Made by a program: the position numbers and the translations under genes. A model generated the notes under the pieces. That model was not told the DNA's origin, did not search any database, and saw only the letters and a list, made by a program, of their open reading frames with translations. From positions 1-29,924 of IMG/VR virus record IMGVR_UViG_3300012667_000752: a stretch of DNA of 29,924 bases. The stretch is one strand, 5' to 3'. The DNA is from a virus (Duplodnaviria; Caudoviricetes). Below, piece by piece: positions 8,361-25,078 of the stretch. The stretch's first letter is position 1. Each line of letters opens with the position of its first letter.

Positions 8361-9767
8361 ATGAGCCTAGCAAACCTAACCGAAGCCCAGCTCGCCGCAT
8401 TGATCGACCAGTTGCAATACGAGTCCAAGCGGGAGGGCATGCGCCTCTACAAGCCCTACGCCAAGCAGAGGGCCTTCCACAACGCCACCAAGGACCACCG
8501 GGAGGTCTGCTTTGCCGCGGGTAACCAGATTGGCAAAACCTACGCTGCAGCCAACGGCCTTGCGATCTGGCTCACCGGCGAGTACCCGGACTGGTGGGAC
8601 GGGCGCCGCTTTGATCACCCAATCAACGCCTGGGCCATCGGCCTGACGGGGGAGTCCACCCGCGACACCCTACAGCGCCTGCTGATGGGGCGCCCAGGTT
8701 CGTTCGGAACCGGGGCCATACCGGCGGACTGCATTGTGAGTTACACCAGTGCGCGTGGTGTCAGCGACGCCTTGGACACGGTGATCGTGAAGCACAAGAA
8801 CGGTGGGCAGTCCACGCTCGGATTCAAGTCCGTAGCGCGAGGGCGCGAGGCGTTGCAGGGTGAGTCCTTGCACGTCGTCCAGGCCGACGAAGAGCCCGAT
8901 CTCGACACCTACACTGAACTTTTGACCCGTACCCAGGCGCGCAACGGGTTGGTGGCCATGACGTTCACCCCCCTCTTGGGCATGTCGGATGTTGTGAAGC
9001 GCTACTTCATGGAGAAGAACCCGGACCGGGCTTTGGTGAATGCGACCATCGATGACGCCGAGCATTACACCGAAGAGCAGCGCGCCAGCATCATCGCCGG
9101 ATACCCGGCCCATGAGCGCGACGCGCGGGCCAAAGGCATACCGGTGCTCGGATCGGGCCGGGTCTACCCGGTGGATGAGGCCCTGTACGTCTGTGACCCG
9201 TTCCCTCTTGGCAAGCACCTCCCGCGCTTGGCGGCCATCGACTTTGGCATAAATCACCCGACCGCCGTGGTGTGGCTGGCCTGGGACCGCGATACCGACA
9301 CCGTGATCCTGTACGACTCAATGCGGATCAAGGACACCAGCGTGGTGCTGCAGGCGCCGCTGATCGCGGCCAAGGGCAAATGGATTCCGTGTGCGTTTCC
9401 GCATGATGGGGACAACAGGGAAAAAGGTTCTGGTAAGACCCTGGCCGAGCAGTACCGGGAGCTGGGTGTGAACATGCTACCGGGGCCGGTAAAGCACGTC
9501 GATGGTGGCAACTCGGTTGAGGCGGGCATCAGCGACATCTTGAACCGAATGCAGACCGGGCGTCTGAAGATATTCTCGAACCAGTTGCAGATTCTCGAAG
9601 AGCTGAGGATGTACCACCGTAAGAACGGGCTGATCAACAAGGTGGATGAGGATTTGGCCGATGCCCTGCGCTATGGGGTTATGGGTATCCGCTTCGCCGC
9701 CACGGAGCCGCGTCAGATCGGCACGGTGGTGCGTCCCAACTTCGGAATCCGCCGCGGCGGGTACTGA
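8361..9767 (+). CDS. terL: Terminase large subunit (P22 gp2-like)
   Basis: PYAKQ adenine motif, AAGNQIGKT Walker A, YPDWWDGRRF, QADEEP Walker B, MTFTP, AIDFGINHPTA and DLADALRYG nuclease motifs; GAGG RBS. Confidence 0.95.
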   Translation: MSLANLTEAQLAALIDQLQYESKREGMRLYKPYAKQRAFHNATKDHREVCFAAGNQIGKTYAAANGLAIWLTGEYPDWWDGRRFDHPINAWAIGLTGESTRDTLQRLLMGRPGSFGTGAIPADCIVSYTSARGVSDALDTVIVKHKNGGQSTLGFKSVARGREALQGESLHVVQADEEPDLDTYTELLTRTQARNGLVAMTFTPLLGMSDVVKRYFMEKNPDRALVNATIDDAEHYTEEQRASIIAGYPAHERDARAKGIPVLGSGRVYPVDEALYVCDPFPLGKHLPRLAAIDFGINHPTAVVWLAWDRDTDTVILYDSMRIKDTSVVLQAPLIAAKGKWIPCAFPHDGDNREKGSGKTLAEQYRELGVNMLPGPVKHVDGGNSVEAGISDILNRMQTGRLKIFSNQLQILEELRMYHRKNGLINKVDEDLADALRYGVMGIRFAATEPRQIGTVVRPNFGIRRGGY

Positions 9768-9798
9768 TATCATTGAGCCGTATCGACTAGGAGTTAAT

Positions 9799-10428
9799 AT
9801 GGCTGATGAGACAGTTGTTTTCAATGGCAGGGTGTATGCCTGGAACGGGCGCTACTTTCGCAAATCCAGGAGCTTCTTGCACCGTGATGTGTGGATTCAT
9901 TTCAATGGGCCCATACCCAAGGGGTATCACGTCCACCACATCGACCACGACACCCGGAACAACGCCATTGAGAATCTGCAGATGGTGTGGGGCACGACGC
10001 ACCTGAGTACGCACCAGCGGGCCATGTCAAAGCCCAAGCCGGTATGGGCCTATCCAGCGCTGCAGGCCTGGCGGGAGAGCGAAGCGGGGAAGGCCGCACT
10101 CTCCGAGATGGGCCGGCGCAATAGCGTCTACTTGGGTCAGGAGAAGGAGTTCAAGTGCGAATGCTGCGGTGAGTACTTCAACGCGCCAAACGTGGGACAC
10201 AACCGCTTTTGCAGCAACAACTGCAAGTCGAAGTGGCGCAGGGCGGCCGGCCTGGACGATGTGGCCAAGGTCTGTGTTGAGTGCGGAGTGGAGTTCAAGA
10301 CGAACCGGTTTAAGCCAACTGTGACGTGCTCGCTGTCATGTGGCCGCAAGCAGTGGTTGAAGACCGACGCAGGGAGGGCCCACCTCGAAAAGCTGGCCAG
10401 TGCTAAGCGCACCAAGCCCCACCCCTAA
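9799..10428 (+). CDS. HNH endonuclease with C-terminal Cys-rich zinc-binding repeats
   Basis: LHRDVW...GPIPKGYHVHHIDHDTRNNAIENLQ (HNH); CECC...FCSNNC and CVEC...TCSLSC; AGGAG RBS before ATG 9799. Confidence 0.88.
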   Translation: MADETVVFNGRVYAWNGRYFRKSRSFLHRDVWIHFNGPIPKGYHVHHIDHDTRNNAIENLQMVWGTTHLSTHQRAMSKPKPVWAYPALQAWRESEAGKAALSEMGRRNSVYLGQEKEFKCECCGEYFNAPNVGHNRFCSNNCKSKWRRAAGLDDVAKVCVECGVEFKTNRFKPTVTCSLSCGRKQWLKTDAGRAHLEKLASAKRTKPHP

Positions 10429-19075: not shown

Positions 19076-22000
19076 ATGGCAACGTATGAGATCAAGTCTC
19101 CCGATGGTCAGACCTGGGAGGTCAACGCTCCTGACGATGCGACCGAGCAGCAGGTCTTAGCCTACGCGCAGAGCCAGTGGGAGCCGACAAAGCCCGCCGG
19201 CGGTGGTCGCGGCTTTGTGCAGCCCCCGGCAGCGTCTGACGCCCAGGGCAACCGTCTGCGTGAGCTGCAGGACCCTAACCTGTCCCGCGTGGAGAGGTTG
19301 AACCTGGCGGACACCTGGACCCAGAACGAGATGGCCCGCCTGGCCGACATCAACCCGGGCGCATCGGCAGACGACTTGGCAGCGCTTGCGGCTCAACGGT
19401 TCCAGGCTGTTAAGGACGGCGCCCCGGCACCTCTGGTAGACCGGGTCTCTGAGTACCTGAACAAGCCCGGTTCAAACTACGACCTCGAATCGGCCAAGGC
19501 CAATGCAAAGTTCGACGAGGGCGTTGAGCGCCGGTTCAACCTGAGCCAGCAGAGCCGCGCGCCAGATGCCAATGGCGACCGGGTAACCATCGGGTACAAC
19601 CCTATCCAAGACGCGCAGAAGACCGCACGCGATACGCAAGAGCTGGCCGACCTGCGCGACGACGCCCTGGGCCGGGTTGCATCGGGCGAGATGAATTCGA
19701 CCCTGCGCGGCTTCGTGAAGGGCGGCGTTCAGTCAGCAGGTCTTACGGCCGCGACGGTTGGCTACCTGGCCGATGTGGTCGGCGCCGATGCCGTCAAGCA
19801 GTGGGGCTTGGACACCAACAACGCGGCAGCGCGCATTGCCAACCAGATGACGCTGGCCAAGACCGCTTCGCAGATTCAGAACCTGGACGACTTCCAGGGC
19901 TGGCTCGCTGAGAACGGCGGCTACGTCGCGTACCAAGCGGCCGAGGCCCTGCTCACCGGCGGTCTGGTTTCTGGCGTGAGCAAGCAAGCCGCACGCCAGG
20001 CTGCGATTGAAGCGACCGCCCTGGGCATGAACAACCTGCGCCAGACGCTTGGCTCGGTCTACGCCGACGCGGTCGATGAAGCCAAGCGCACGGGCAAGGA
20101 CCCATCCCTCTTTGGCGTAGCCCTCGGTGCTGTTGGCTCCGCCGTCATCGACACCGTAGCGGACAAGTTCGGCCTGGACGCGATGACCAAGACCGGCTTC
20201 AAGGGCGCCGTGGCTGAGCGCATGGCCAAGTCCATCGGATCGCAGGCCTTGATGCAAGGCGGCACCGAGGCGCTGCAGTTGGTACCCGAGGAAATGGGCG
20301 CCGGGCGCGATCCGTTCCGTGACGGCATGGGCGCGCAGTTCTTCGATGAGGCGGCAGTTGGCGCGCTCGGCGGCGGAGGCCCTGGCGTACTCGGCGGGCT
20401 GAACAAGTACCAAGAGCCCACCGGCCCCACCGCCGAAGACATCGCCCGAAGCAAGGGCTTCCTGACACCGGAGCCCATCGTCGCCCCGCGCGTCGAGGAC
20501 ATGCCCACAACGCCCACCGTGCCCACGGTGAAACCGGCCGCGCAAAACGTGGTTGAAAACATAGCGAGTCTCCTTGGCCAACAAACCCCCACGCCTGACG
20601 CAGGAGCAGCGCCTGCTGTCGAAGCACCTACAGTGCAACCCCCTGTATCTGGTGTACCTGGACAAACTGACGTCGCCACGACAGAACCTGTTTCCGACGC
20701 GACACAGCCCGCCGCCGTTCCTGCAGCCGATGCGCCAGCACCTGCGTCACTGAGCAACCCGACCGGACCCGCACCGTTTGGGTTGAACCCGGGTGACCGA
20801 GTTGAGTATGCGGATGGCGCCGAGACAACCTACGGACTTGAAGCGAGCAACCCGGCGCCGGCGATCCCCGCCGGGACCGATCCGCGCCAGGCAGCCCTGG
20901 CCAAGATCGAAGAAGAGCTGCAAGCCAGCAAAGCCCGCCAGGAGGCCGAAACGAAGGCCCAGGCTGCAACTGCCCAAGCTGAGCAGGAAACGGCCGCAGC
21001 GGCCGATCTGGCCAAGCGCAGCGTGGGTTCTGCGTACCAGCAGACCAGCGCAACGCCGACACCCCAGCCGGGTGCTGTGCCTACGGCCCCGGAGGGCCCC
21101 GCCCTACCTAGCGCCACTTCTGCGTACAGGGACACCAGCGCGGCGCCCGCCACTGATAACGGCGTACCGACGGCCTCCGCCCCGGCGGCGCCCGCTCCGA
21201 CTGTTACCTGGGACAAAGCCACCGAGGCCAAGCTGAAAGCGGCGTCCGAGTCGTCAGTGGGCCGCGGCATGGTCAAGCTGGCCATGGACCGCTGGAACAA
21301 GAATAGCGACCTAACCGACAGCAAGACCTACCCGGAGGCAGTGCTCTATGGCATCATCAACTCCCCTGACGTCGGGCCAGACCTCCTGGCTTCAGCGCGT
21401 CAAGAAATTGGACGTCGCCGTGGCACAAACACACAACCAACTGTCAGCTACACCGGAACCACTCAGCCTGGAACAACAAGCCTCGGAGTGGGTGGCCAAT
21501 CGCAACCGGCTGCGGGACTCAGCAGCTACCCAGCTCAACAGCCCGCTGTCGCTGCGCCTGTCGGACAAGCAGTCGGCGGTCAACCCGTACTCTCTTCCCG
21601 AGCCACTGCAAACGGAAGTGCTGCGCCTGCTGGAACAACCAAGTCCTTAGCGCCAACTGCCCCGGACGCGCTGCTTGCGCGGGTATCCGAGCAGCTCAAG
21701 GCTGACCGCGGCGTTCAGTTCACACCCTTCAAGGGTCAGCTCACCACCGGCCAGCAGGTGGCCAGTGCCTTTGCCAACGCCAACGGTCGCACGTTCACGG
21801 TGGTCGAGCGCACTGCCGGCAACGAGCGCGACATGCCCAACGGCTTCGCTATTCCCGGCACCAACCACGTCGTCATCGACAGCAAGGCCAGCGACGCGCC
21901 GGTGCTGGTGGCGGTCCATGAGGTTTACCACCTGCTGCCGACCAAGCTGCGCATCAAGGCCAACAAGGCACTGCGCGCTTTGTTCAAAGAGGACCAAGCG

Positions 22001-25000
22001 ACTGAGTTCGGCCGTGAGTTCAACGTAACCCCCGAGCAGTTCGAGGAGGAAATCCCGGCGTACATGGCGCAGGCCGTGGCGTCGCGCCCGACCTTCTGGC
22101 AAGAGCTGCGCACGAAGATGGGCAACAAGGACTTTTCGGAGTTCGCCGGCTTCGTGCTGCAGAAGTTCAAGGACCTCATGCGCGGAGCGGAGAAGTCCCT
22201 TGGCGAAGGGTTCCTGCAGAAGTACATCGGGGAAGAGTCCAACATCCTGGAGGCTCAGCGCATCCTGTCGGACCTGTACGTCGAGTCCATGCGCGAGCAG
22301 GGCTTGCAGCCTGATGAGGCCCTTGCCGCACCGGTGATGATGTCGCAAAAGCGCACTCAGAACACCGAGCAGGTTGGCGAGCACGAAGTAACGCCCGCTA
22401 AGGACGGAAGCATCTTTGTCCACGGCGACCCCGAGGCTATTCGCGCCAAGATACCGGAAGGCGTCAAGGGCCGCGTGGAAGCCGGCGGTGTGCGGTTCAC
22501 GCACTCCGATGCACCCCGCGTGCGCGGTGCGCTTTCAGGCAACCAGATTGCGTACAGCCGAGGCGGCCAGGTCAACGAGAAGTTGGCCCTGACCAAAGAC
22601 GGTAAGTACCTCGGAGCCCCGGAGAAGTTCAACACCCCCGGCAAGGTTCCGACATTGCGTCGCTGGTTGCGTCAATTGGCTGAAGAGGGTGCACCCGGCC
22701 GGTACTGGTACGAAAATAGCAGCGCAGCCATCTTGCACATGACTGGCGGCGACGTCCAGGAAGCGCGCAAGTTCGTTGCCCTTCTGGCGATCTACTCGCC
22801 CCAGGCCAAGGTTGACGCAAACAGCACATTCGCGCTGCGCGCATGGTCCCAGTACAAGATGGGCCAGCCCATCAGTGTGAAGACCGGCGTGATGGACCGC
22901 AAGGCCCAGGCCGCGCTTGATGACGTGGATGCGTTCTGGTCCGGCGAGAAGACAGGCAACTTCTTCCACAACCTGCTGAGCGAGATCGACCCGACCACCA
23001 AGGGTAAGCAAGGCGCCACCATCGACATGTGGATGATGCGTGCCGGGCAGTACAGCAACGACGCGCCGACAAAAACTCAGTACGCGTTCATGGAGAACGA
23101 GACCAACCGCCTGGCGCGCGAGTTGGGCTGGGAGCCGCAGCAAGTGCAGGCCGCGATCTGGGTGGCCATGAAGGCCCGGATGGAGAACACCGGGGTCAAG
23201 AAGCGCACGGAGGCCATCTCTGAGAAAAAGGGTTGGCTGCGCTACGACTACCCGCTCAAGAAGGGCACGCCGACCAAGACCCGCGTGGTGCAGGACGCGC
23301 AGAAGCACCGCGACAATTGGCTTGACCAGGCGTTCAAACACGACCCGTCGAAGCAAGACACGGCCACCGCCAAGTTCGATTTCAGCGACGGCGTGCGCCG
23401 CCACATCGGCCAAGTCTCCTGGGAGGCCCGCCCTGGTCGTAGCACCGGAGTCCTGCCCGGCGTGAACGACGCCCCGTATGACCAGCAGGTTGAGTTCCAG
23501 CAGGCCGTACATCGCGCCCTGCTTGGCCCCAACGGTGAGGACCTCCTAGCTCAAAAGCTGGGCTTGTTGGTGGACGGCGAGGACCTCCTGGCACCGGGAA
23601 TCTGGCAGGGCGAGGTAGCGGCCGGCATGCAGAAGCAAGTGGCCATGGCACCCGCCAAGGGCGACGAAGGCAAGACCGGCTTGGACACTACCCAGAAGCA
23701 GGCGCTCGACACCTACTCTGCGGTGCTGGGCCTGCTGCTGCGCCAGGAGGGCGTCGGCTGGCACCGCCCGTTCTACAACGGCAAGAAGTCCGGCGAGAAC
23801 GGCGCTGAGCTGCGCATCGGTTCGCCCTTCACCCCGGAACAGGCCCAGGAGCTTTGGTCCGCCCTGGACGCCGCGATGCAGGCAAAAGGCGTTGCGGATT
23901 GGGAACAGTCGGCAGGTTTGATTTCCAGCCCACAGGGAATGCGGGTTGTCAACTTCGGTGCCTTGAAGGACAATGGTGACTTCCAGCGGCTAGTTGAGTC
24001 AGCCGCTAACGGGCTGTCTTTTGACGTGCAAGAGCATGTGCGCTTTACGTCTGACGGCAATTTGGTTACGAACGATTGGAGGGCCAATCCAGATGGCACT
24101 ACTTACCAAACCGCGATCAGCGACGCAGGACGATCCGATCTACTCGGGTGGAGTCGAGATGTTCTCGCCCCGAGGGTCCAGCAAGTCTTCGACGACTTCA
24201 GCGAGCGATACGACTGGGGAAATCCCGGCAGCATCAACTTCAGCAACAAGCCCGGCGATGGACTCGGTGGCGTTCATGCAGAGCGTGGACCAGGCGCTAG
24301 AGCGCACGCTGTTCGGATCGACGGCACCCACTTCAGCCAAGGCCAACGAACAAGCCTAGACGGCCGGTACTTCGGTCGCGGTCTCAAGGGCGCTGAGCAG
24401 TCGCGCCTCTCCGAGGCAAGCGACTCCCGCATCAAGGAGCGGGTCTACTTCTACGTCGATGAAGGCAAGGGCATCACGCCCGAGGCCGGCGTGGGTGGCT
24501 ACGCACATGCGGCCAGCGTAGACAACCTCTACAACACACAGGGCGATCCGCTCAAACTGTTCCGCGCTGGCGACATCAACGGCAGCGAGAGCCGTGTCCT
24601 GGACGCCGGGTTCGACGGCTACTACTTCCCCAACTACGTCAACGGCCAGGGCATCGCCGTGGTTATGGGCAACGCCAGCCGGGGCATCAAGGTGTCGCCC
24701 ACCGAGTACGCCAAGGGGCAAGCCCCAGCAGCCCCCGCGCAGCCCTACAAGCGCGGCTTGTCCAGCAAGGAACTCAATGCCATCGACATGCCGGCCGTGC
24801 AGGCTGTGGCGCCCAGCTCCAAGCTGCGCGCCGGCACGTTCCAGGTAGACGAGTCGGAGCTGGACGCCGCCCGGGCGGAACTAGCCAACCAAGGCATCAC
24901 GCTGCCTGGCACCACGCCGTTCAGCAACAAAGCCCAAGACCTGGACCAGGACATCACCCTGGAAATCCCAATCGAAGGCGGCAAGACGGCCAAGCTCACA

Positions 25001-25078
25001 GTCAACGCGGCCAGCTACATCAAGCAGCTTGATGCCCGCGAGGAGGCTCTCAAAATGGTCAAGGAGTGCATGCTATGA
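19076..25078 (+). CDS. Large polyvalent/ejected virion protein (HExxH metallopeptidase-like, HhH glycosylase-like and ART-like domains)
   Basis: 2000 aa; N-terminal YEIKSPDGQTWEVNAPDDAT module; Gly/Ala helical region; VAVHEVYH (HEVYH at 21917-21931); WYE..ALLAIYSPQ..GEKT..TIDMWM..PQQVQAAIW (22700-23175); HFS..FGRG..RVYFY..NLY..AGFDGY (24329-24690). Confidence 0.8.
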   Translation: MATYEIKSPDGQTWEVNAPDDATEQQVLAYAQSQWEPTKPAGGGRGFVQPPAASDAQGNRLRELQDPNLSRVERLNLADTWTQNEMARLADINPGASADDLAALAAQRFQAVKDGAPAPLVDRVSEYLNKPGSNYDLESAKANAKFDEGVERRFNLSQQSRAPDANGDRVTIGYNPIQDAQKTARDTQELADLRDDALGRVASGEMNSTLRGFVKGGVQSAGLTAATVGYLADVVGADAVKQWGLDTNNAAARIANQMTLAKTASQIQNLDDFQGWLAENGGYVAYQAAEALLTGGLVSGVSKQAARQAAIEATALGMNNLRQTLGSVYADAVDEAKRTGKDPSLFGVALGAVGSAVIDTVADKFGLDAMTKTGFKGAVAERMAKSIGSQALMQGGTEALQLVPEEMGAGRDPFRDGMGAQFFDEAAVGALGGGGPGVLGGLNKYQEPTGPTAEDIARSKGFLTPEPIVAPRVEDMPTTPTVPTVKPAAQNVVENIASLLGQQTPTPDAGAAPAVEAPTVQPPVSGVPGQTDVATTEPVSDATQPAAVPAADAPAPASLSNPTGPAPFGLNPGDRVEYADGAETTYGLEASNPAPAIPAGTDPRQAALAKIEEELQASKARQEAETKAQAATAQAEQETAAAADLAKRSVGSAYQQTSATPTPQPGAVPTAPEGPALPSATSAYRDTSAAPATDNGVPTASAPAAPAPTVTWDKATEAKLKAASESSVGRGMVKLAMDRWNKNSDLTDSKTYPEAVLYGIINSPDVGPDLLASARQEIGRRRGTNTQPTVSYTGTTQPGTTSLGVGGQSQPAAGLSSYPAQQPAVAAPVGQAVGGQPVLSSRATANGSAAPAGTTKSLAPTAPDALLARVSEQLKADRGVQFTPFKGQLTTGQQVASAFANANGRTFTVVERTAGNERDMPNGFAIPGTNHVVIDSKASDAPVLVAVHEVYHLLPTKLRIKANKALRALFKEDQATEFGREFNVTPEQFEEEIPAYMAQAVASRPTFWQELRTKMGNKDFSEFAGFVLQKFKDLMRGAEKSLGEGFLQKYIGEESNILEAQRILSDLYVESMREQGLQPDEALAAPVMMSQKRTQNTEQVGEHEVTPAKDGSIFVHGDPEAIRAKIPEGVKGRVEAGGVRFTHSDAPRVRGALSGNQIAYSRGGQVNEKLALTKDGKYLGAPEKFNTPGKVPTLRRWLRQLAEEGAPGRYWYENSSAAILHMTGGDVQEARKFVALLAIYSPQAKVDANSTFALRAWSQYKMGQPISVKTGVMDRKAQAALDDVDAFWSGEKTGNFFHNLLSEIDPTTKGKQGATIDMWMMRAGQYSNDAPTKTQYAFMENETNRLARELGWEPQQVQAAIWVAMKARMENTGVKKRTEAISEKKGWLRYDYPLKKGTPTKTRVVQDAQKHRDNWLDQAFKHDPSKQDTATAKFDFSDGVRRHIGQVSWEARPGRSTGVLPGVNDAPYDQQVEFQQAVHRALLGPNGEDLLAQKLGLLVDGEDLLAPGIWQGEVAAGMQKQVAMAPAKGDEGKTGLDTTQKQALDTYSAVLGLLLRQEGVGWHRPFYNGKKSGENGAELRIGSPFTPEQAQELWSALDAAMQAKGVADWEQSAGLISSPQGMRVVNFGALKDNGDFQRLVESAANGLSFDVQEHVRFTSDGNLVTNDWRANPDGTTYQTAISDAGRSDLLGWSRDVLAPRVQQVFDDFSERYDWGNPGSINFSNKPGDGLGGVHAERGPGARAHAVRIDGTHFSQGQRTSLDGRYFGRGLKGAEQSRLSEASDSRIKERVYFYVDEGKGITPEAGVGGYAHAASVDNLYNTQGDPLKLFRAGDINGSESRVLDAGFDGYYFPNYVNGQGIAVVMGNASRGIKVSPTEYAKGQAPAAPAQPYKRGLSSKELNAIDMPAVQAVAPSSKLRAGTFQVDESELDAARAELANQGITLPGTTPFSNKAQDLDQDITLEIPIEGGKTAKLTVNAASYIKQLDAREEALKMVKECML
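20574..20753 (+). CDS. Candidate nested +1-frame ORF (59 aa) inside the 2000-aa gene
   Basis: TTG start after an in-frame TAG at 20562; MANKPPRLTQEQRLLSKHLQCNPLYLVYLDKLTSPRQNLFPTRHSPPPFLQPMRQHLRH; CTG/CAG/CGC-rich codons while the host frame uses CCT/GCA/GGA/ACA. Weak RBS; absent from the ORF track. Confidence 0.45.
   Translation: MANKPPRLTQEQRLLSKHLQCNPLYLVYLDKLTSPRQNLFPTRHSPPPFLQPMRQHLRH
21348..21650 (+). CDS. Candidate nested +1-frame ORF (100 aa) inside the 2000-aa gene
   Basis: GGAGG at 21334-21338, 9 nt before the ATG; GC3-rich codons in this frame (CTG, GCC, CGC, TCG, CCG) where the host frame becomes an A/T3-rich low-complexity linker. Confidence 0.6.
   Translation: MASSTPLTSGQTSWLQRVKKLDVAVAQTHNQLSATPEPLSLEQQASEWVANRNRLRDSAATQLNSPLSLRLSDKQSAVNPYSLPEPLQTEVLRLLEQPSP
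24093..24359 (+). CDS. Candidate nested +1-frame ORF (88 aa, DDPIYSGG motif) inside the 2000-aa gene
   Basis: GGAGG at 24078-24082, 10 nt before the ATG; MALLTKPRSATQDDPIYSGGVEMFSP...MDSVAFMQSVDQALERTLFG; codon usage switches to this frame at ~24258-24320. Confidence 0.55.
   Translation: MALLTKPRSATQDDPIYSGGVEMFSPRGSSKSSTTSASDTTGEIPAASTSATSPAMDSVAFMQSVDQALERTLFGSTAPTSAKANEQA

Follow-up and report, generated by a model that had tools for sequence, protein, structure and literature searches.

The stretch of DNA analysed here is a 29.9 kb IMG/VR virus record (IMGVR_UViG_3300012667_000752; Duplodnaviria, Caudoviricetes), taken over its whole length of 29,924 nucleotides (nt) and called the window below. 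Its completeness is estimated at 53%, and its G+C content is about 63%. The window carries a giant gene for a protein of 2000 amino acids (aa), referred to as the host gene, in whose +1 frame three small open reading frames (ORFs) are nested (ORF1 to ORF3; Table 1). An earlier, sequence-only reading of this DNA had proposed that the giant protein contains potentially toxic enzyme domains, each travelling with one of these small overprinted partners. The comparisons and structure predictions described below suggest that ORF3 is probably a genuine, conserved embedded gene with a product that likely pairs with the host module encoding it. The frames of ORF1 and ORF2, by contrast, are likely open by chance and fall in linkers with a low G+C content at third codon positions (GC3).

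Table 1 Features of the giant gene, its nested frames and related frames in homologous loci (window coordinates unless a locus is named; SD, Shine-Dalgarno motif; P(open), probability of an open frame given the host protein)
Feature	Position	Strand	Basis
Giant host gene, 2000 aa, polyvalent-type phage protein, structural block	19076..25078	+	ORF list and translation
ORF1, 59 aa, TTG start, no SD, likely chance	20574..20753	+	P(open) 0.45; no homologue
ORF2, 100 aa, GGAGG at 21334-21338, likely chance ORF in low-GC3 linker	21348..21650	+	TAG in related contig; no relative
HEVYH (HExxH) motif, in domain aa 858-1080	21917..21931	+	Motif at aa 948; limits from high-scoring segment pairs of homologues; no match in Pfam
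Host module, aa 1094-1728: HhH-GPD glycosylase-like part (DUF7178), alpha/beta subdomains, C-terminal helices	22355..24259	+	AlphaFold2 (AF2) model
Predicted ORF3 docking surface, discontinuous: host aa 1441-1444, 1565-1578, 1618-1620, 1637-1657	23396..24046	+	Complex model
GGAGG SD motif, 10 nt before ORF3 ATG	24078..24082	+	Equivalents in homologues
Synonymous-constraint core, host codons 1673-1728, also encoding the last three helices of the module	24092..24259	+	Synonymous-codon identity
ORF3, +1-frame overlapping ORF, 88 aa, predicted own start	24093..24359	+	ATG and open frame conserved
C-terminal region, aa 1741-1960, possibly ART-PolyVal-like	24296..24955	+	Nearest protein-atlas clusters carry PF18760, score 0.87
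MxxKPLKPSK ORFs in relatives	L004:6771-6950, L015:7080-7259, L006:6846-6995, L009:6891-7016, L010:6476-6625, L011:5082-5231, L016:7032-7259		+1 frame

The coordinates, common +1 frame and stops of the three ORFs had been read correctly, and so had the GGAGG motif before the ATG of two of them, 9 nt upstream in ORF2 and 10 nt in ORF3. The start codon of ORF1 is TTG instead of ATG, with no SD before it, and ORF3 in its longest form would start at TTG 23994. As had been noticed, the host frame loses GC3 over the nested frames, with values of 0.40 (ORF1), 0.475 (ORF2) and 0.607 (ORF3) versus 0.765 for the whole gene, and the nested frames acquire typical codon usage. The codon-usage log-likelihood (LLR), calculated against the codon usage of 14 other window genes, is 0.19 in the nested and -0.22 in the host frame for ORF1, 0.11 and -0.19 for ORF2, and 0.03 and -0.10 for ORF3. 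Among the 12 +1 stretches of at least 50 codons, the nested frame reaches or exceeds the host frame only in the three holding ORF1-3, and the longest stretch is not one of these. The nine remaining stretches score between -0.38 and -0.83 in the +1 frame; the whole stretch holding ORF3 is about level (-0.07 nested versus -0.04 host). This compositional observation is correct and specific. The high GC3 of the nested frames arises because Pro, Ala, Gly and Val codons have G or C at their first position.

The openness of the three frames is by itself not beyond chance and is ordinary in a G+C-rich gene: given the host protein, P(open) is 0.45 for ORF1, 0.15 for ORF2 and 0.71 for ORF3. Out-of-frame pairs of SD and ATG number 2, versus 0.35 expected from 1000 synonymous shuffles (0.30 in the +1 frame alone), a count reached in 4% of the shuffles for any frame and in 2.3% for the +1 frame. 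The ORF counts in the giant gene fit the shuffled null with two exceptions. There are 45 stops in the +1 frame versus 54 +/- 4 in the shuffles, and seven +1 stretches of at least 100 codons versus 3.5 expected, which 0.6% of the shuffles reach. ORF3 alone does not explain this deficit of stops and surplus of long stretches. No PHROGs family was found for the peptide of ORF1, ORF2 or ORF3.

Conservation of ORF3 in homologous giant genes

A search of IMG/VR with the giant protein returned 34 homologous loci, 33 of them with a giant ORF of 1492-3606 aa; the aligned part covers window residues of about 770-1950. The ORF3 region is covered by 32 of the 34; one locus ends before it (L008) and one is without a giant ORF (L027). 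Together with the window, the 32 loci give 29 unique sequences, of which 21 are non-redundant (<85% aa identity).

A +1 ATG stands at host codon 1673 in all 29 unique sequences. In the host frame it spans AAT or GAT and the next codon, GGx, and AAT or GAT accounts for only 7-47% of the Asn/Asp codons of each gene; the naive product of these frequencies over the 21 sequences is 1e-14.6. An SD-like ribosome-binding site (RBS) of the form GGAAGGAG, GGGAGG, GGAGAG or GGAGG lies some 7-11 nt upstream in 26 of the 29, and L030, L023 and L024 have only a weaker GGAG. The ATG is also found in L072 (the contig of L027, fetched again), in L080/L081 and in all three loci from bacterial genomes, namely a Burkholderiales metagenome-assembled genome (MAG), Halomonas sp. 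NO4 and a Gallionellaceae MAG. Two further loci, L076 and L085, have no ATG at the aligned site and carry a GTG one codon downstream, behind AAAGGAG. The locus of Halomonas sp. NO4 (L093; NZ_WHMA01000002.1), apparently a prophage, and L024 share the same giant gene with an identical nested ORF of 88 aa.

Over host codons 1673-1725, the ORF3 frame is open in 21 of the 21 non-redundant sequences, and the four remaining alternative frames are open in 5, 11, 0 and 1 of them. An antisense gene was rejected as a cause of the conservation, the minus frames being open in 11, 0 and 1 only. When synonymous codons were resampled, 5.1 sequences with a +1 stop were expected and none was observed; in the +2 frame, used as a control, 16 sequences have a stop versus 16.2 expected. 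Taken alone, this avoidance of stops is a modest effect. The most distant relatives, with 30-35% host identity, have other ATGs upstream, and their open +1 frame reads DDPI[YF]..G or DNPIY..G. Moreover, a profile of the nested peptides matches 79 small metagenomic proteins that had already been called, all unnamed or listed as 'hypothetical protein'.

Synonymous change in the host frame is depressed over ORF3. Synonymous-codon identity was scaled to each gene's own codon usage and followed in 132 codon windows of the 650-codon module. The ratio of observed to expected identity peaks at 2.23 over ORF3, on a background with a median of 1.13 and a standard deviation of 0.19. The 11 top-ranked codon windows all fall within host codons 1669-1728, and the ratio climbs from the ATG onward. 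No comparable peak is present in the HExxH domain (maximum 1.40) or the C-terminal domain (maximum 1.29). In disjoint pairs of sequences, codon identity is higher in the ORF3 region in 10 of 10 cases, with pooled counts of 277/345 versus 2164/3943 (0.80 versus 0.55; Fisher 2.6e-21). ORF3 thus combines a frame kept open, a conserved start and RBS, and a synonymous depression confined to the overlap, which are the marks of an overlapping gene.

Other causes of the constraint were examined. Host third-position identity is 0.61 in the ORF3 region versus 0.45 elsewhere, and host positions 1 and 2 are not raised there (0.65 and 0.72 versus 0.685 and 0.753). Recent recombination at the module border was rejected for this reason. 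A cluster of rare codons was also rejected because the exact base is conserved beyond its GC class: where two sequences agree in GC class within a four-fold box, they also agree in the base itself in 92% and 86% of comparisons over ORF3 versus 60% and 63% elsewhere. Codons ending in A or T make up 0.31-0.49 of the region irrespective of the rest of the gene (0.06-0.47). The search for a conserved RNA structure over ORF3 found none (RNAalifold -1.3 kcal/mol, 8 pairs), and such a structure was dismissed as the cause. The 60-nt window around the ORF3 start belongs to the least-structured quartile in 21 of 21 sequences, with a median percentile of 0.03.

The nested homologues are 57-114 aa long. 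Their first 45 residues or so form a conserved core, and the tail behind it is variable, with many Ser and Thr residues. The core of the family can be written as M-[GA]-K-x-[TI]-x-x-G-x4-D-D-P-[MI]-[FY]-S-x-G-P-E-[LM]-F-S. The peptides are hydrophilic (median GRAVY, the grand average of hydropathicity, -0.80), and Cys occurs in 0 of the 29 sequences. In the tail, similarity in the nested frame exceeds that in the host frame in the seven best pairs. The differences seen in contigs from public sequencing runs over ORF3 are anecdotal only.

The host module and its predicted complex with the ORF3 peptide

The giant gene is a member of a mosaic, polyvalent-type family of phage proteins, judging from its homologues. 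Several enzyme-type domains occur in one polypeptide, and their order varies among relatives: six loci (L002, L003, L005, L008, L029 and L031) have the C-terminal domain on the upstream side of the DUF7178 module. The shuffled order is the basis for placing the protein in such a family. Within the giant protein, the only match in Pfam and PHROGs is DUF7178 / phrog_3842 (aa 1202-1367), and a sequence search of the Protein Data Bank (PDB) gave no match. No mention of 'DUF7178' was found in the literature searched.

The AF2 model of the module that surrounds ORF3 (predicted local distance difference test, pLDDT, 87.8; predicted template modelling score, pTM, 0.82) is a chain of 635 aa, in which the addition of 1093 converts residue numbers to those of the host protein. 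Model residues 96-342 resemble HhH-GPD DNA glycosylases in VIA-align comparisons (3n0u_A with Z 10.1, a root-mean-square deviation of 4.1 and 173 aligned residues; 1xqp_A with Z 8.5). Foldseek also points to AGOG/Ogg glycosylases with a probability of 0.92-0.96, yet at E > 0.1, and no PDB match of the module reached E <= 0.001. The last three helices (model residues 582-619, pLDDT above 90) come after the alpha/beta subdomains. ORF3 had been placed between the glycosylase-associated region and the ART-like domain, over a stretch where the host would in large part read as a linker. However, ORF3 starts within the last helices of the glycosylase-like module, and its core overlaps these folded helices and not a linker. 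The ART-PolyVal assignment of the C-terminal region is a lead only.

A predicted complex of nested ORF and enzyme domain, also proposed in the sequence-only reading, was obtained for ORF3. The module was modelled together with nested residues 1-52 in three runs and three controls, with custom alignments. The three runs score 0.74, 0.73 and 0.76, and all three controls 0.00. The score mark used is reached by 116 of 157 solved complexes and by 2 of 215 mismatched pairs, which is a rough guide given the custom alignments. The runs share at least 45% of their contacts. Nested residues 2-18 are predicted to touch module residues 348-351, 472-485, 525-527 and 544-564, and the contacts are tightest between nested residues 7-10 and module residues 560-564. 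They lie on the alpha/beta subdomain (chain residues 348-564) and outside the glycosylase-like part (96-342). The contacted module residues are not encoded by the overlapping DNA, so that the signal does not stem from trivial co-variation.

ORF1, ORF2 and a second embedded frame in relatives

The evidence for ORF1 and ORF2 is different. ORF2 does lie upstream of the HExxH peptidase-like domain, as had been stated, with HEVYH at aa 948 (nt 21917). Among the IMG/VR relatives of the giant gene, no alignable homologue covers the ORF1 or ORF2 region. Searches for close relatives over these two regions by blastn of the phages collection gave nothing, and tblastn found two records that matched aa 1681-1931 only. 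The N-terminal 495 aa brought up no relative in IMG/VR, and the N-terminal 875 aa gave a single 23-aa match among metagenome contigs. In relatives with the HExxH domain, the +1 frame upstream of it contains stops and no ORF2-like peptide, and no ORF2-like protein was found among 5.8 billion database proteins.

Contigs from public sequencing runs provided some related sequence. One of 151 nt, with a depth of 2.1, covers 21341-21480 with 16 listed differences, distributed 4/2/10 over host codon positions 1/2/3. They change 11 of 44 nested residues versus 5 of 46 host residues. One of them turns the nested TTG at 21408-21410 into TAG and the host Ile into Leu. Contigs over ORF1 show two listed differences only, and one related contig has 42 different bases in place of 20715-20849.

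Low GC3 is common in such linkers. Of 30 homologous loci with linkers rich in Pro, Ala, Thr, Ser and Gln (duplicate loci counted), 24 have a lower GC3 in the linkers than over the remaining gene. The low linker GC3 in the window (20504-20800 and 21419-21706) and in the homologues persists when Pro, Ala and Thr codons alone are considered. Possible causes are tRNA supply, the avoidance of extreme G+C or further embedded ORFs. On these comparisons, ORF1 and ORF2 are likely chance open frames; a real gene is unlikely in the case of ORF2 and quite improbable in that of ORF1.

A second embedded frame was found in relatives of the giant gene. Eleven of the homologous genes scanned (L004, L006, L009, L010, L011, L012, L014, L015, L016, L019 and L021) contain the +1 motif M-[AS]-[RL]-KPLKPSK-x-[KR]-[RK]-[KR]. 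These ORFs of 42-76 aa lie directly after a small conserved domain, in a low-GC3 linker rich in Gln and Ala. An invariant GGAGA precedes their start by 6-7 nt; the start itself is ATG, GTG or TTG, always at the same aligned position, where the host residue varies (L, N, R or S). Over the first 14 codons, host third-position identity is 0.82 versus 0.74 and 0.79 at positions 1 and 2, and aa identity is 0.81 in the nested versus 0.65 in the host frame. The nested Ser is encoded by AGC in six sequences and by TCC in three, and the host residue there is Q, V, I or L. L016 has the motif without a detectable HExxH domain; the element therefore goes with the small upstream domain and not with the peptidase-like domain. 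It is missing from the window, and a comparison of ORF2 with this ORF of the relatives gave nothing by BLASTP and a probability of 0.1 by hhalign. An all-against-all scan for further alternative-frame conservation gave 2071 segment pairs favouring the alternative and 2046 favouring the host frame, and was swamped by low-complexity off-frame matches.

In some database proteins (P0080, P0081, P0075, P0077, P0073 and P0052), an ORF3-type leader encoded on metagenomic contigs continues in frame into domain-like parts. These fused forms measure 190 aa (P0080, P0088 and P0093), 142 aa (P0075 and P0097) and 323 aa (P0081); P0077 and P0095 are further cases. The fused domain is cpYpsA (SLOG) in P0080 and PRTase-like in P0081, and the PRTase-like part is in the host frame in L042. 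Searches for fused forms returned the domains alone, with the leader missing. In the cpYpsA cluster, 9 of 14 members carry another N-terminus, so the fusion there probably reflects an extended gene call. As a whole, the leader fusions are ambiguous and may be cargo fusions, over-long calls of downstream genes or frameshifts.

As for the surroundings, the window also encodes helicases, a primase, the small and large terminase subunits, an HNH endonuclease and a portal protein. The giant gene is located downstream of the terminase and portal genes, with unannotated structural genes in between. The ORF of the HNH endonuclease (9646-10428) overlaps the 3' end of the large terminase gene (8361-9767) by about 120 nt.

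Weighing the readings and their significance

Several observations weigh against the reading of ORF3 as an embedded gene and of ORF1 and ORF2 as chance frames. Most of the +1 openness over ORF3 is forced by the host protein, P(open) being 0.25-0.98 per sequence with a product of just 1e-3.7. The homologues are related, so product probabilities overstate the significance, and the disjoint-pair test is the safer figure. Over ORF3 the +2 frame shows as much conservation as the +1 frame (z 19.6 versus 18.9); therefore, the arguments that count for coding are the ATG and its SD, the accessibility of this start and the avoided +1 stops. Substitutions in the variable tail fall 62/61/72 on nested positions 1/2/3 without a clear coding periodicity, which leaves the tail similarity suggestive only, and one close relative has four third-position changes within nested codons 27-44. 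The ORF3 product is predicted to be disordered (AF2 pLDDT 61, pTM 0.19), and in the complex its pLDDT is just 46-47. The model supports binding, and no more, for the ORF3 peptide as a subunit of the module encoding it. Finally, the rejection of ORF2 rests on the single 151-nt contig with a depth of 2.1, the verdict of chance for ORF1 and ORF2 is not proven, and flips in codon usage like theirs are rare in the linkers of homologues (5/62, one of the five being the ORF3 tail of L013).

Among the alternatives, the one that survives best is a non-coding nucleotide element at 24092-24259, such as a regulatory RNA or DNA site or a ribosome-loading site, with the three ORFs as by-products. The equally strong conservation of the +2 frame, the missing codon periodicity of the tail and the predicted disorder of the product are all in line with it. 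However, such an element does not call for a +1 ATG that all 29 sequences keep by way of a disfavoured codon, or for its substitution by a GTG preceded by an SD. Nor does it explain the lack of stops in the +1 frame alone, the onset of the constraint at the ATG or a DDP[IM][FY] peptide motif kept down to 30% host identity. No conserved RNA fold accompanies the constraint, and the complex prediction passes its controls. A non-coding element is thus considered improbable.

The original three-cassette idea, in which all three ORFs are real and each provides an inhibitor, antitoxin or chaperone for the neighbouring toxic domain, stands in part. A nested partner is supported for ORF3 by conservation and the controlled complex prediction; for ORF1 and ORF2 it is not supported, given the lack of alignable homologues and the TAG that a related contig has within ORF2. 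In its favour, the codon-usage flip appears in all three intervals and in those alone, such flips are rare elsewhere, and relatives hold a second conserved +1 ORF. The starts of ORF1 and ORF2 are also weakly folded, with percentiles of 0.025 and 0.17 (median of 0.12 for 11 real gene starts of the window). These points are outweighed by the changes in the ORF2 contig, biased to host third positions and including the TAG, and by HExxH-carrying relatives and protein databases without any ORF2-like frame or relative. The TTG start of ORF1 without an SD and the generally low linker GC3 of homologous loci also speak against it, and three working cassettes appear very improbable.

Least credible of all is a programmed +1 frameshift yielding a truncated polyvalent protein with an alternative C-terminus and loss of the downstream domain. 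In its favour are the SD-like motif upstream, a +1 frame that stays open over the domain boundary and database +1 frames that run into real domains (cpYpsA in P0080, PRTase-like in P0081). Against it, no conserved slippery run, in-frame stop or rare-codon pause was seen when the codon alignment of the 21 sequences was inspected by eye, without a formal motif scan, and a frameshift does not need the invariant ATG. The divergent N-termini in the cpYpsA cluster and the host-frame PRTase-like part in L042 also speak against it.

With ORF3 as an embedded gene, the following course of events can be envisaged. Ribosomes would start internally at the ORF3 ATG on the late mRNA and produce a small disordered protein of 57-114 aa with a conserved core and a variable Ser/Thr-rich tail. 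Its residues 2-18 would add to an edge strand (host aa ~1653-1657) of the alpha/beta subdomain, which would turn the module into a two-chain assembly. The best guess, by analogy, is that the peptide acts as an accessory subunit, i.e., an assembly helper or regulator of the module, in parallel with the embedded Rz1 and its partner Rz. A broader version would regard giant polyvalent proteins as two-layer genes, in which modules carry small +1 embedded genes that travel with them and whose products dock back, with ORF1 and ORF2 as lineage-specific members. This version remains doubtful. Two unrelated examples of embedded ORFs are at hand, one being ORF3 with its homologues in the glycosylase-like module and the other the MxxKPLKPSK ORFs of relatives; the latter, on their sequence pattern, may lend the general idea of embedded partners some ground.

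Comparable arrangements are known. In lambda (PMC6139136; PMC5295617), the small Rz1 ORF has its own start and lies entirely within a larger phage gene, in the +1 frame, where gene callers usually miss it. The Rz1 protein has many disorder-promoting residues and forms a pair with the protein of the containing gene. ORF3 is likewise wholly embedded in the +1 frame with a putative start of its own, and its pairing is a predicted one. There are differences, too. Rz1 is an outer-membrane lipoprotein of the lysis cassette, whereas the ORF3 peptides are hydrophilic; an Rz1-type lipoprotein identity was rejected, as a lipobox requires the Cys that is lacking in 29 of 29 peptides. Furthermore, the ORF3 host is a multi-domain protein of 2000 aa in the structural block and not an i-spanin. 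ORF3 thus seems to represent, with good likelihood, an architecture of the Rz/Rz1 type in a different class of phage protein, as judged from sequence comparison and modelling.

The giant protein resembles the polyvalent proteins described by Iyer et al. 2017 (PMC5512222) in being a giant phage protein with shuffled enzyme-like modules. Shared module types would include HExxH, the HhH-GPD-like fold, a possible ART-PolyVal domain and, in relatives, a PRTase-like domain. A term search of that paper found no mention of frameshift, overlapping, alternative reading or internal start; an embedded second gene therefore appears to fall outside that description. Literature searches for overlapping or embedded phage genes, judged by abstracts, brought up none reported for polyvalent proteins. 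Overprinted genes have been described in small viruses such as phiX174, where the younger protein typically shows disorder and the older frame a reduced synonymous change (PMC8227390; PMC6195259). ORF3 is similar as a putative second protein from an alternative frame with depressed synonymous change in the host. In contrast, those viruses have very small genomes pressed for space and ORF3 is found in a phage contig of at least 30 kb; it is also tied to one mobile module, which it follows through domain shuffling.

Standard gene callers discard embedded genes. The hidden ORF of the ORF3 type is conserved throughout a widespread giant-protein family from freshwater, soil and prophages, down to 30% host identity, and is physically locked to one enzyme-like module. 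A local drop in GC3 together with a flip in codon usage can flag a true overlapping gene, and the same signal occurs in linkers without comparative support. A genetic handle is given by a host-silent change that removes the nested start, with Halomonas sp. NO4 as a cultured host (L093). If ORF3 is translated and binds as predicted, polyvalent proteins would come with built-in small subunits and not as single polypeptides. If this is true, the study of polyvalent-protein delivery, activation or self-protection would need to change.

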